A program made the translations under genes and the position numbers. Of a DNA stretch of 64,000 nt, positions 3,930-21,070 are shown piece after piece. The notes under the pieces were generated by a model. It saw only the letters and a program-made list of their open reading frames with translations, was not told the origin of the DNA and did not search any database. The DNA comes from an uncultured Candidatus Saccharibacteria bacterium (GTDB taxonomy: Bacteria > Patescibacteriota > Saccharimonadia > Saccharimonadales > JAGQNJ01): positions 98,774 to 162,773 of the forward strand of contig CAZEED010000001.1 of NCBI GenBank assembly GCA_964510945.1, written 5' to 3'. Position 1 is the stretch's first letter, and every line of letters starts with the position of its first letter.

Positions 3930-3955
3930 AAGAAGAATAGGTAAATTACATAAAC

Positions 3956-3983
3956 GGCACTCTTGACCCATGTCAAGAATGCC
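3956..3983 (+). promoter_or_regulatory. Imperfect palindrome GGCACTCTTGAC-N4-GTCAAGAATGCC sharing the GCACTCTTGAC half-site with the two CIRCE-like elements
   Basis: Read directly from the sequence. Lies 27 nt after the nusA stop. Function unknown; possibly a third operator or a terminator-like hairpin. Confidence 0.3.
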
Positions 3984-4030
3984 AAGTATGTTCATCCGCT
4001 GGCACTATCTCTCCAGCGAACTACTCTAAC

Positions 4031-4095
4031 TATTTAGTAATAACTTCACTTTAGTGTAGCTACGGCTACACTAAACTCTGAGTTATTACTAAATA
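4031..4095. repeat. Long imperfect inverted repeat (~30 nt arms) in the nusA-clpC intergenic region
   Basis: tatttagtaataacttcactttagtgtagc / gctacactaaactctgagttattactaaata seen in the sequence. No following T-tract. Confidence 0.4.
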
Positions 4096-4137
4096 GCGAG
4101 TACTTCATCTTTATAGATACGCTTTCGAACAAACATA

Positions 4138-4175
4138 TTGGCACTCTTGACATGAGAGTGCTAATTTCATAATAT
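4138..4175 (+). promoter_or_regulatory. CIRCE-like operator (TTGGCACTC-N9-GAGTGCTAA) overlapping a sigma70-like promoter (-35 TTGACA 4147-4152, 17 nt spacer, -10 TAATAT 4170-4175) upstream of clpC
   Basis: 8/9 and 9/9 match to the CIRCE half-sites with the canonical 9-nt spacer. The spacer carries the -35 hexamer. Confidence 0.6.
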
Positions 4176-4226
4176 GGGAATACGATTATAGTCGTATACA
4201 AAATTAATTCGAGGGATAATTAATAC

Positions 4227-6701
4227 ATGCACCCAAATTCATCTGACTTTCAAGAGTTCTTAAATCACCTGACGGAAAACGCCCTGCAAAGTTTGCGACA
4301 CGCCGACGCTATTGCTCGTAGTGCAAATAGTCCGTACGTAGGTACAGAGCACCTACTGCTCGGTGTATTGGCGCAGGAAGGGTCGTTAGGCTCAAAAGTG
4401 TTAGTTGACGCAGGCGTAACTCTTGATAAAGCTCGGGTTGCGCTAAATCTAAGCCCAAAGAATATCATAATTAATATGGGCGCTAAGGGGCTGAGTGAGA
4501 CCGCAAAATTGACATTAAAAATGGCCTACGATGTAGCACAGGAATTTAATCAAGAGTTCTGCGGGACAGAGCATATTGTGTATAGTATTTTGACTCAGAA
4601 GAATGCTCGAGCCACAGTTTTGGTTAGAGATATGAGAGTTGATGTTGATCGACTAATAACTGAGCTAGAACAATTTTTAAATAAGCAACAATATGATGAG
4701 AACGGCAGTCCGGGTTCAACAAAGCGAGTTAAAAAAGGCAGAAAAACTGCTTTAGACTTTTTTGGCACAGATTTGACCGCTCAGGCAAAAGAAGGAAAGC
4801 TTGATCCAGTAGTTGGTAGAGACCCACAGATCAGACGACTAATCACTATTTTAAATCGTAGAACCAAAAATAACCCAGTATTGATCGGTGAGCCAGGAGT
4901 AGGAAAAACTGCAATCGCTGAGGGGCTTGCTCAAAGAATAGTAAGCGAGGACGTTCCTGACGGTTTGTTGGACAAAAAGATAATAATGCTCGATCTAGCG
5001 GGTATGATCGCAGGGACTAAATACAGGGGCGAATTTGAAGATCGCCTGAAGAAAGTCATGAATGAACTAGAACGAGATAGGAATATTATAATTTTTATCG
5101 ACGAACTTCATTTGATTGTTGGTGCAGGCGCCGCTGAGGGTGCTATGGATGCCGGGAATATTCTAAAACCGGCACTCGCTCGAGGTAAGATTCAGATGAT
5201 TGGTGCTACGACGACAAATGAATATACTAAGCACATCGAGAAAGACGCCGCGTTAGAGCGTCGACTACAGCCCATTCAAGTGCCAGAAACGAACGTTAAT
5301 GAAACAATAGCAATCCTAAAAGGTCTGCGTAAACATTACGAAGCTTTCCACGGAGTAACTATTAGCGATGAAGTTATAACGGATACTGTTCAGCTAGCTA
5401 AAAGGTATATTAATGACAGATTCATGCCTGATAAAGCAATTGATCTTATAGACGAGACTGCGGCGCATCTTCGCCTAGATAAAGGTAGAACACCACCGGA
5501 AGTGAGAAGGCTTAAACAAGAGCTGAAGTTAGTTAATACCCGTATTGAAGATGCAGTTGATGCGGAAGATTACGAGAGAGCCGCCCAAAATAAACAAAGG
5601 GCCAGTCAGATTCAAGAAGAGCTCAAAAAACTAAATTCAAATGAAAAAGTAAACAAAAAAATTGTTATGAATAGCGAGGATGTCGCCGGAACAGTTGCAC
5701 GTATGACCGGTGTACCAGCTAGAAAAGTTATTAGATCTGAAGCAAAGTATCTGATGAACCTAGAAAAGTCTTTAGGTAAGTATGTTATAGGTCAAGACGA
5801 GGCCGTTGAGGCCGTATCTAAGGCTATTAGACGAAATAGATCAGGAGTTGGTAGCGAAAAACGGCCTGTTGGCTCATTCATTTTCCTAGGACCAACAGGG
5901 GTAGGTAAAACGGAACTTGCTAGAGTGCTGGCTAGAGAATTTTATGGATCAGAAGAAGCGCTAGTAAAAATAGACATGAGTGAATTTAGCGAACGACATA
6001 CTGTTGCGCGTTTAGTAGGTGCTCCTGCAGGATACGTTGGATACGATGATGGCGGACAATTAACTGACAAAATCAGACGTCAACCTTATAGTTTAGTTTT
6101 GTTTGACGAGATTGAAAAAGCTCATCCTGAAGTTTTTAACATGCTACTACAAATATTAGAAGATGGACATTTAACTGACGCCAAAGGACGAAAAATTGAT
6201 TTTACTAACACTATAGTGATTATGACTAGCAATATCGGAGCCGAAAAACTCCAGAAAGAAGCGTCATTTGGCTTTTCGGTAAACACTAGCAAACAATTAG
6301 AAAATCTCGACGAGCTTCACAAAGCCAATAAAGATAAGGTGCTAGATGATTTGAAGAAAATGCTACGTCCAGAACTGCTGAATAGAATCGATAAAACAAT
6401 CGTATTTAGAGCTTTAACGAAAAAAGATATTATTCGAATACTTGATCTTCAGGTTGATGAGTTGAAAGAGCGTTTAGTAAAGCATGGTCTTAGCGTTAAA
6501 CTGACGCCTCAGGCTAAGCAATACATGCTAGACAATGGTTATGATGCCAAAAACGGTGTCCGACCGCTCAGACGGCTCCTGCAAGACACGTTGGAGGACT
6601 ATATTGCATCAGAGCTATTGTCTGACAAATATAAAAAAGGCGACATCATATCTATTGATACAAAAAAACACGATTTGACGTATAAAGTAGCTACTGAATA
6701 A
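4227..6701 (+). CDS. clpC: ATP-dependent Clp protease ATPase subunit ClpC-type (Clp_N, two AAA+ modules)
   Basis: Two Walker A motifs ([16 protein letters not shown]). N-terminal Clp repeat domain. Short middle domain typical of ClpC rather than ClpB. Confidence 0.88.
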
Positions 6702-6725: not shown

Positions 6726-7694
6726 ATGAATTCCAGAAAGAAATCATTTGAGATATTCATTGTTTTCTGTTTATTGTTGGTTGGATTAGGATTTGTCTTT
6801 CGACAGGATTTGATGGATTGGTACACGCTCAGGACCTATGACCCTCCGGCATCTATTGAAAAAATAACAAAAACCAATAAATTCACCGAGTCAGGAAAAA
6901 GATATTTTTATGTAGCTCGTCCCGCGATCGTTAGAGGGGCACAATTTAATCAAAAGTGTCGGGATGGTTTGCCGACAGAGTTTTCTATAGTCCTGGGGTG
7001 TTATATCAATACTGACGGTATCTATCTTTTTAGAGTCACGGATAAGCGATTAAATGGAATTGTAGAAGTAACAGCAGCACATGAAATGTTGCATTCGGCA
7101 TACGACCGATTAAACAGTGATCAAAAAAACGAAGTAGATAAAATGTTGCAAGAAGCTTACCAGGGAATAAAAGACGTTAGGATTAAACGAACGATCGAGC
7201 AATACAAGCAACAAGATCCCTCGAGTGTCCCGAACGAACTACATTCTATACTCGGAACAGAAGTCGCAAATTTGCCCGAAGATCTCGAAAATTATTATAA
7301 GCAATATTTTAAAGATAGGACCACTATTACAGATCTGTCGTCTAGCTATGAATCAGAATTTAGCTCAAGACAGAATAAGGCCGACCAAATTGGCTTGCAG
7401 CTTTCGGGCCTTAAGTCTGAAATTGATTCCGCCCAGCAGTCAGCTAATCAAAAGCGCGCCCAACTCTTAGGTGATAAAAGTTCGTTAGATGATTTATTGG
7501 CGAGCGGAAAAACAGACGAGTATAATTCGCGTGTCGATTCATTCAATAACGAAGTCGCTGTTTACAACGCACTCGTTAAGCAAATTCAAACAAAAATAAA
7601 GTCGTATAACTTGCTGGTAGCCGAGTACCAAGACGTTTCTGTAGAGATAAATGATTTATATCAATCTATAGACAGCCGTCCAAAGTCCCTGTAA
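6726..7694 (+). CDS. Hypothetical membrane-anchored protein with HEMLH motif and C-terminal coiled-coil region
   Basis: N-terminal TM helix (IFIVFCLLLVGLGFVF). HEXXH-like HEMLH. Q/S/L-rich heptad-like C-terminus. Confidence 0.6.
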   Translation: MNSRKKSFEIFIVFCLLLVGLGFVFRQDLMDWYTLRTYDPPASIEKITKTNKFTESGKRYFYVARPAIVRGAQFNQKCRDGLPTEFSIVLGCYINTDGIYLFRVTDKRLNGIVEVTAAHEMLHSAYDRLNSDQKNEVDKMLQEAYQGIKDVRIKRTIEQYKQQDPSSVPNELHSILGTEVANLPEDLENYYKQYFKDRTTITDLSSSYESEFSSRQNKADQIGLQLSGLKSEIDSAQQSANQKRAQLLGDKSSLDDLLASGKTDEYNSRVDSFNNEVAVYNALVKQIQTKIKSYNLLVAEYQDVSVEINDLYQSIDSRPKSL

Positions 7695-19992: not shown

Positions 19993-19995
19993 ATA

Positions 19996-20024
19996 TTGAC
20001 AAAACCACCCTTAACTTATACAAT
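19996..20024 (+). promoter_or_regulatory. Consensus-like promoter (-35 TTGACA, 17 nt, -10 TACAAT) ending 6 nt before an ATG (possible leaderless start)
   Basis: Read directly from the sequence. Confidence 0.45.
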
Positions 20025-20030
20025 AGTGTG

Positions 20031-20408
20031 ATGTCAAGGAAACCCGAATTAAACTTTGAAGACGTTCGTTCAAATGAAGATTTAGTGAATCTAGGTGTTG
20101 AGCTAGAAAGAAGATACCCTGAGCTTGAACTTGGAATTCTAACAGTCATGTCAAGATACATTGATACACAAAGAGGACCGAATGATGTTGATAACGCAGT
20201 TAACGGATTAAAAAGTTTGGTTATGAGCGGCATCGATCATAGCGACATGACTGAACAAGTAGTACAACCTCATGGTAGCGCACTTACCTCAACTACGTAC
20301 AGAAGGCTCGAAAGACGAGGAATCCTACCTGCTTTTCGGGTTGACGTATCGAAGTCGTCAGCACCAGATCATGGGGTCATTGGAAAGATCTTAACACGTA
20401 AAAACTAG
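20031..20408 (+). CDS. Hypothetical protein (about 125 aa), possibly translated from a leaderless mRNA
   Basis: ORF between tig and clpP. No recognisable motifs. Stop overlaps the CIRCE-like element. Confidence 0.35.
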
Positions 20409-20431
20409 CACTCTTGACACGAGAGTGCCAA
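20405..20431 (+). promoter_or_regulatory. CIRCE-like operator (CTAGCACTC-N9-GAGTGCCAA) with embedded TTGACA -35 upstream of clpP
   Basis: Matches the CIRCE consensus TTAGCACTC-N9-GAGTGCTAA at 16/18 positions. Lies 40 nt before the clpP ATG. Confidence 0.6.
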
Positions 20432-20470
20432 TTAATGTATTCTATTTGTACAATAAAAGGAGAGAAAATA

Positions 20471-21070
20471 ATGTCCACGAAAGCATCATCAGTATTAATC
20501 CCGACAGTTATTGAATCAGATGGTAGAGTTGAACGGGCTTATGATATATATTCGCGTTTACTCAAAGATCGAATTATATTTTTAGGCACAGACGTTAACG
20601 AGCACACTGCTAATTTAATTGTTGCTCAATTGCTGTTTCTTGAGTCTGAAGACCCAAAGAAAGATATTAAGCTATATATCAATAGTCCAGGTGGTAGTGT
20701 TTATGACGCTCTGGCAATTTATGACACTATGCAGTTTGTAAAAAACGACATAGAGACGGTTGGAATCGGTATCCAAGCTAGTGCAGCGGCATTTTTATTA
20801 AGCTCTGGAACTAAAGGTAAGCGGTTTTTGCTAAAAAACGCCACGGCAATGATCCATCAGCCTTCAGCAGGTACTCGTGGCAAGGTTACTGATATGGAGA
20901 TTGACCTTAAAGAAGGTATAAGAATTAAGCATAAATTAAACGAAATTATGGCCAAAAATACCGGTAAACCTATCAAGCAAGTCGAAAAAGACATGGACCG
21001 AGATTATTGGATGACATCTGATGAAGCAGTAAAATACGGCCTAGCCGACAAAGTCATCACCAACCGCTAA
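20471..21070 (+). CDS. clpP: ATP-dependent Clp protease proteolytic subunit
   Basis: ClpP family (Ser-His-Asp protease fold, GxSxG region with ASAAAF, MIHQP). ATG 20471 with AAAGGAGAG RBS, in frame with the longer track ORF. Confidence 0.9.

Follow-up and report, generated by a model that had tools for sequence, protein, structure and literature searches.

In Bacillus subtilis, the model for control of the class I heat-shock genes (dnaK, groESL) by the repressor HrcA and its operator CIRCE, the CIRCE element is located downstream of the -10 box and the transcription start. To our knowledge, HrcA is the only known binder of CIRCE. In Mollicutes, HrcA controls clpB and lon beside the dnaK operon, and some promoters carry tandem CIRCE copies (PMC5138195). 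For clpP of Streptococcus salivarius, Chastanet & Msadek (2003, J Bacteriol 185:683; cited in PMC3842655) name dual regulation by CtsR and HrcA in their title. Saccharibacteria and other Patescibacteria are largely uncultured, with very small genomes and a transcription regulation that is little known, and full-text literature searches brought up nothing on HrcA or CIRCE for either group.

Upstream of clpC, the window (the whole 64-kb stretch of DNA that was analysed) contains an inverted repeat with a 9-nt spacer, which reads TTGGCACTC at 4138-4146, TTGACATGA at 4147-4155 and GAGTGCTAA at 4156-4164, and which departs from the CIRCE consensus TTAGCACTC-N9-GAGTGCTAA by a single mismatch. The letters of the window thus bear out the 17/18 match at 4138-4164 on which the original prediction was built. 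That prediction further placed a -35 box within the 9-nt spacer, 17 nt ahead of TAATAT, and the consensus promoter scan recovered precisely this TTGACA-17-TAATAT promoter with 10/12 matches. From the spacing, we predict that transcription of clpC starts near 4182. The site lies 62 nt upstream of clpC (ATG at 4227), whose product is a Clp ATPase; it contains two Walker A motifs, and its FGF loop occupies the place of the corresponding loop in ClpP-binding unfoldases. Its relatives are named ClpC in their source entries, and the organisms are Saccharibacteria or Saccharimonadales. In line with this lineage, the clusters formed at 90% identity around the window's ClpP and trigger factor include NCBI entries under the name Candidatus Saccharibacteria bacterium.

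Upon searching the 64-kb window for further CIRCE copies, as had originally been recommended for the genome, we found one more at 20405-20431, upstream of clpP, which the original prediction had missed. This second site, CTAGCACTC-TTGACACGA-GAGTGCCAA, is built like the clpC site with a 9-nt spacer, lies 39 nt upstream of clpP, and contains in its left arm the TAG stop of an upstream 126-aa ORF. Hence, both CIRCE sites of the window precede clp genes, each with a -35 box inside the spacer and a -10 box at 17 or 18 nt (Table 1). Sites with at most three mismatches to CIRCE occurred twice in 64 kb versus 0.03 expected from dinucleotide-preserving shuffles, and the stricter pattern RGCACTCTTGACNNNNGAGTGCY likewise occurred twice in the window versus 0.00 expected, while the scan of the 64 kb returned no further CIRCE-like string below five mismatches.

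Table 1. Coordinates of the clpC and clpP features within the window.
Feature	Position	Strand	Details
CIRCE, candidate operator of clpC	4138..4164	.	TTGGCACTC-N9-GAGTGCTAA, 17/18; kept in 6/6 protein-selected clpC orthologues
-35 box TTGACA	4147..4152	+	First six bases of the CIRCE spacer; TTGAC invariant in protein-selected orthologues
-10 box TAATAT	4170..4175	+	17 nt after the -35 box; consensus promoter scan
Short hairpin, predicted 5' end of clpC mRNA	4180..4197	+	ATACGATTA / TAGTCGTAT; putative role only
clpC	4227..6701	+	824 aa, Clp_N plus two AAA modules, FGF loop residues 681-683
Second CIRCE, candidate operator upstream of clpP	20405..20431	.	CTAGCACTC-N9-GAGTGCCAA, 16/18
clpP promoter	20414..20443	+	TTGACA (20414-20419), 18 nt, TATTCT (20438-20443); 10/12, promoter scan
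clpP	20471..21070	+	199 aa; NF001368 294.8 bits, cutoff 249; ATG 20471

The genes around clpC are arranged in the order pepN (minus strand), nusA, clpC, a 322-aa ORF, radA, PBP (minus strand) and recG, and those around clpP in the order hisS, tig, the 126-aa ORF, clpP, two unknown ORFs, rpoB, rpoC and ribosomal protein operons. None of hrcA, dnaK and groES was found within the 64-kb window, and Rfam models matched only four tRNAs in it. The 322-aa ORF (6726-7694) gave no Pfam or NCBIfam match, and an ORF between clpC and radA is kept in 6/6 orthologous loci at 267-335 aa; in its linkage to radA, clpC is reminiscent of the clpC operon of Firmicutes, minus ctsR-mcsA-mcsB. Ahead of clpP, the 126-aa ORF (20028-20408) is conserved and has no family match, with a 125-aa gene called at the same place in the clpP-bearing locus of a close relative (L172). 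This ORF is itself preceded by a promoter at 19996-20024, after the tig stop, that reads TTGACA-17-TACAAT with 11/12 matches.

Several further structures were seen around the clpC promoter. The short hairpin with which the clpC mRNA is predicted to begin has a predicted counterpart of the same placement and differing sequence in most clpC orthologues (L166-L170, L060, L076, L086, L095), and it could act as a 5'-end stabiliser. Between nusA and the clpC operator, a nested inverted repeat at 4030-4096 has perfect arms of 16 bp (outer) and 11 bp (inner), and is found in identical-strain contigs, but relatives lack it in the corresponding intergenic region. Several same-strain Logan contigs stop at or within the CIRCE palindrome. 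Just past the nusA stop, a hairpin at 3955-3984 (GGCACTCTTGAC-CCAT-GTCAAGAATGCC, stem of 12-13 bp) shares its 12-mer GGCACTCTTGAC with the stretch made up of the left CIRCE arm and the -35 box, and GCACTCTTGAC occurs in the window only three times, namely in this hairpin and in the two CIRCE sites. Close relatives carry the hairpin as well (two copies in L166, at least one in L167), but it is missing from orthologous loci at greater distance. It might represent a terminator of nusA, an operator copy in decay, or a small repeat element of palindromic type.

The clpC site is conserved among orthologues that were chosen without regard to the motif. Protein identity (95, 88, 85, 83, 79 and 78%) was our sole criterion in choosing six ClpC homologues, whose loci we then compared. 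All six carried a CIRCE whose spacer opens with TTGAC and which ends 57-65 nt before the ATG, with 0-2 mismatches to the consensus arms (TTGGCACTCTTGACAGGAGAGTGCTAA; TTGGCACTCTTGACATGAGAGTGCTAA; TTAGCACTCTTGACATGAGAGTGCTAA; CTAGCACTCTTGACGTTAGAGTGCTAG; TTAGCACTCTTGACCCGCGAGTGCTAA; TTAGCACTCTTGACGCCCGAGTGCCAA). Across these sites, the core arms and TTGAC are invariant and the last four spacer bases vary, while the remaining intergenic DNA has diverged in sequence and in length, from about 100 to about 400 nt. Such invariance amid variable surroundings fits a protein-binding DNA site plus a -35 box, and not an RNA hairpin. The position of the site follows clpC: nusA directly precedes clpC in the window and in 5/6 orthologous loci, and in the sixth (L171), where two extra, unannotated ORFs intervene, the site still lies directly before clpC. 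For clpP, the site was present in the one orthologue picked by protein (L172, from the close relative GCA_035329585.1), and five motif-selected clpP orthologues carry it also. Footprinting with contigs that encode an identical ClpC (L001-L006) was discarded as uninformative, because their upstream DNA is identical and they represent the same strain. Within Saccharibacteria, this arrangement looks like the rule, judging from these comparisons, and not like an oddity of one genome.

We found the same architecture at the classical HrcA targets of related genomes. Metagenome contigs were scanned for RGCACTCTTGACNNNNGAGTGCY, which yielded at least 120 stretches, and the first substantial ORF downstream of each was called and clustered, after which the cluster representatives were compared with Pfam and with the window proteins. 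Among the matches listed, the downstream gene was hrcA in at least 34 cases, dnaK in at least 25, hsp20 in at least 9, groES in at least 4, clpB in at least 2, and groEL and dnaJ in at least 1 each, where, as the sample was selected by the motif itself, the proportions of these gene classes are not regulon frequencies. A clpC-type gene lay downstream of at least 13 listed sites (full-length products sharing 70-78% identity with the ClpC of the window) and clpP downstream of at least 5 (full-length products sharing 66-75% identity with the ClpP of the window). The few other downstream genes among the matches listed included one for a zinc-ribbon protein, which lay on high-GC contigs; only part of the matching contigs have an assigned taxonomy, and some high-GC matches belong to other phyla, those with the zinc-ribbon gene among them. 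At 104 of the 121 listed sites, a hexamer with at least 4/6 matches to TATAAT follows at 16-18 nt from TTGAC. In one group of contigs (L042, L162-L165; GC 38%), the identical 27-mer TTGGCACTCTTGACATGAGAGTGCTAA stands before an hrcA-grpE-ORF-dnaK-ORF-dnaJ operon. Furthermore, when an hrcA locus was chosen by protein similarity alone (L174), the site was again present, together with a second CIRCE. Given this shared architecture at hrcA, dnaK, hsp20, groES, groEL, clpB and dnaJ, the site is most likely an HrcA operator. The notion of an HrcA-type operator overlapping the clpC promoter, as originally put forward, thus gained support both from orthologue conservation and from the same design at hrcA, dnaK, groES, groEL, hsp20 and clpB on related metagenome contigs.

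The number of CIRCE copies differs between promoters. Most dnaK promoters (L044, L071, L072, L075, L100, L119, L145, L154 and others) and some hrcA promoters (L174) carry two copies, the first sitting on the -35 box and the second, at a distance of about 19 nt, following the -10 box, while clpC and clpP promoters, including both sites of the window, carry a single copy. Two copies versus one may correspond to graded repression strength. A separate scan of genome contigs with the 8-nt-spacer pattern GCACTCTTGACNNNGAGTGC, which is blind to N9 sites, gave 35 matches, most of them chance-like. Such 8-nt-spacer variants (TTGAC plus 3 nt) were seen directly upstream of hrcA in a Patescibacteria MAG (L018) and directly upstream of groES in a Moraniibacteriota MAG (L041).

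The HrcA of the lineage is unusually short. A homologue search seeded on the hrcA-grpE operon family (L042) scored 8000 candidates, all with E <= 1e-10, and those homologues that are named are either NCBI entries from Candidatus Saccharibacteria or Patescibacteria or carry the name 'heat-inducible transcriptional repressor'; by homology, HrcA is widespread in the lineage. The lineage protein comprises ~236 aa (L042:920-1636; homologues P0030-P0149 about 232-257 aa) and thus falls some 100 residues short of the HrcA proteins characterised so far, such as the solved Thermotoga maritima HrcA of 338 aa. Its winged-helix domain aligns to residues 14-94 of 1STZ (E = 2e-18; 9.5e-23 with a profile), and in the profile search against PDB sequences this DNA-binding domain alone was aligned. 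The Pfam model of the HrcA C-terminal part covers the short protein at model positions 82-215 of 215 only, and an AlphaFold model of it was unusable (mean pLDDT 42, pTM 0.30). As the protein is shorter and only its DNA-binding domain was aligned, its regulation may differ.

We consider it highly probable, on the basis of these comparisons, that the CIRCE sites at clpC and clpP are HrcA operators, which would repress by occlusion of the -35 box and would be derepressed under stress jointly with the chaperone genes. An HrcA dimer would bind the 27-bp palindromes at 4138-4164 and 20405-20431. With TTGACA inside the 9-nt spacer, bound HrcA would cover the -35 box and deny RNA polymerase access to the promoters of clpC and clpP; since the hexamer lies within the spacer, sigma region 4 should find no room beside the dimer, and repression would proceed by promoter occlusion. 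We infer that heat or protein-folding stress would inactivate HrcA, whereupon both clp promoters would open together, along with those of hrcA-grpE-dnaK-dnaJ, groES/EL, hsp20 and clpB. By analogy with known HrcA proteins, derepression might occur when unfolded proteins titrate away GroEL as the helper of HrcA, or through a heat lability of HrcA itself.

We also considered regulators from other described systems. The CtsR heptad repeat (RGTCAAA-NAN-RGTCAAA, with at most three mismatches) was found neither in 3930-4226 nor in 19993-20470, and its 17 matches in the window, versus 11 expected, are near chance; CtsR or McsB families were reported neither in the window nor in the six clpC orthologue neighbourhoods. 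Control of clpC and clpP by CtsR was rejected, as neither promoter has a box. An HspR/HAIR-type site was considered too, but the sequence instead matches CIRCE at 17/18 positions. As there is no CtsR box at either promoter and no ctsR-mcsA-mcsB near clpC, the chaperone branch and the Clp branch both appear to fall under HrcA. In this Saccharibacteria lineage, the chaperone and Clp regulons appear to be merged, with HrcA seemingly doing for the clp genes what CtsR does in Firmicutes; chaperones and Clp proteases probably share HrcA as their one repressor.

The palindrome could in principle serve a regulator other than HrcA, either a lineage-specific repressor or a Clp-specific analogue of CtsR or ClgR. 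In favour of such a regulator, hrcA was seen in relatives and not within the 64-kb window, and the protein of the lineage is atypically short, its C-terminal half aligning only in part to the Pfam HrcA model (82-215/215). The same arms, however, stand ahead of hrcA itself, as in classical autoregulation, and the lineage also has them ahead of dnaK, groES and hsp20; in its DNA-binding domain, HrcA shows good conservation relative to 1STZ; neither clp gene has a CtsR box nearby; and a Clp-specific regulator would leave unexplained why the motif is common to chaperone genes. We hence regard a non-HrcA regulator as unlikely.

A still smaller probability falls to the idea that the clpC site is just a strong sigma-70-type promoter, whose flanking symmetry is unregulated sequence inherited with it. 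TTGACA-17-TAATAT is indeed near-consensus by itself, yet the arms GCACTC/GAGTGC, which a promoter does not need, are invariant in 6/6 protein-selected orthologues, in which free variation is seen at the last four bases of the spacer and in the intergenic DNA nearby. Moreover, other promoter-like sites of the window do without the arms, for example that at 19996-20024, and the arms occur at only two sites in 64 kb, each preceding a clp gene. Least credible to us is a function of the palindrome as an RNA hairpin, whether as a terminator of nusA read-through or as an mRNA structure, instead of a DNA operator. The predicted clpC transcript begins downstream of the palindrome, and although the site does lie downstream of nusA and a scan listed a weak terminator-like hairpin at 4161-4141 on the minus strand, the plus strand has no T-tract. 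It is the arm sequence itself that is conserved, not merely its pairing, with no compensatory changes seen, and the same sequence fronts heat-shock genes in unrelated genomic contexts. An HrcA operator built around the -35 box thus remains the preferred reading of both sites.

If HrcA indeed acts at these promoters, control of the chaperones (dnaK, groESL, hsp20, clpB) and of the ClpCP protease would be joined in a single repressor and a single operator design, which would exemplify regulatory consolidation in reduced genomes, parallel to the Mollicutes. The CIRCE sites here and in relatives supply this little-understood phylum with a concrete regulon that can be tested, and the operator together with the -35 and -10 boxes constitutes a recognisable promoter signature for annotating transcription units in Saccharibacteria/Patescibacteria genomes. 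More speculatively, and with considerable doubt, one might propose that the minimal ~236-aa HrcA is a single master regulator of proteostasis that fuses the class I and class III regulons across Saccharibacteria and probably the wider Patescibacteria. If true, one operator built into the -35 box would serve both the class I chaperone and the class III Clp regulon, and the HrcA, truncated by roughly 100 residues of its canonical C-terminal region, might sense stress in a manner unlike GroEL titration, e.g., intrinsically or via turnover by ClpCP.

In comparison with known systems, the B. subtilis CIRCE/HrcA pair is closest in the operator itself: the same inverted repeat, TTAGCACTC-N9-GAGTGCTAA, recurs here at 17/18 and 16/18 positions, it would likewise be a repressor operator within a vegetative promoter, and in relatives from the lineage the motif also precedes an hrcA-grpE-dnaK-dnaJ operon with hrcA as its first gene. 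The differences concern the targets, which here are clpC and clpP, the placement of the operator, which is centred on the -35 box, and the size of HrcA, which is about 340 aa in the B. subtilis model versus about 236 aa in the lineage. The Mollicutes regulons share the setting of reduced genomes and the placement of AAA+ protease or disaggregase genes under HrcA/CIRCE, and their tandem CIRCE copies resemble the Saccharibacterial dnaK promoters; by contrast, their targets are clpB and lon instead of clpC and clpP, they belong to another phylum, and the design with the -35 box in the spacer is undescribed there. The clpP of S. salivarius, as the title of that paper describes it, is similarly under HrcA/CIRCE control, but CtsR shares the control there, whereas here HrcA would act alone, without a CtsR box or context. 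The Firmicute CtsR class III regulon (clpC operon, clpP, clpE) resembles the present one in its radA-linked clpC, its clpP and a repressor site overlapping the promoter, and differs from it in the heptad direct repeat of its operator and in having ctsR-mcsA-mcsB upstream of clpC, neither of which is found here. The original description of HrcA-type control of clpC as an unusual wiring therefore holds against the Bacillus model only, and gives way before the precedents of clpB and lon in Mollicutes and of clpP in S. salivarius. Overall, what these promoters most likely carry is the known CIRCE/HrcA control system, with an extended gene list rather than a new mechanism.
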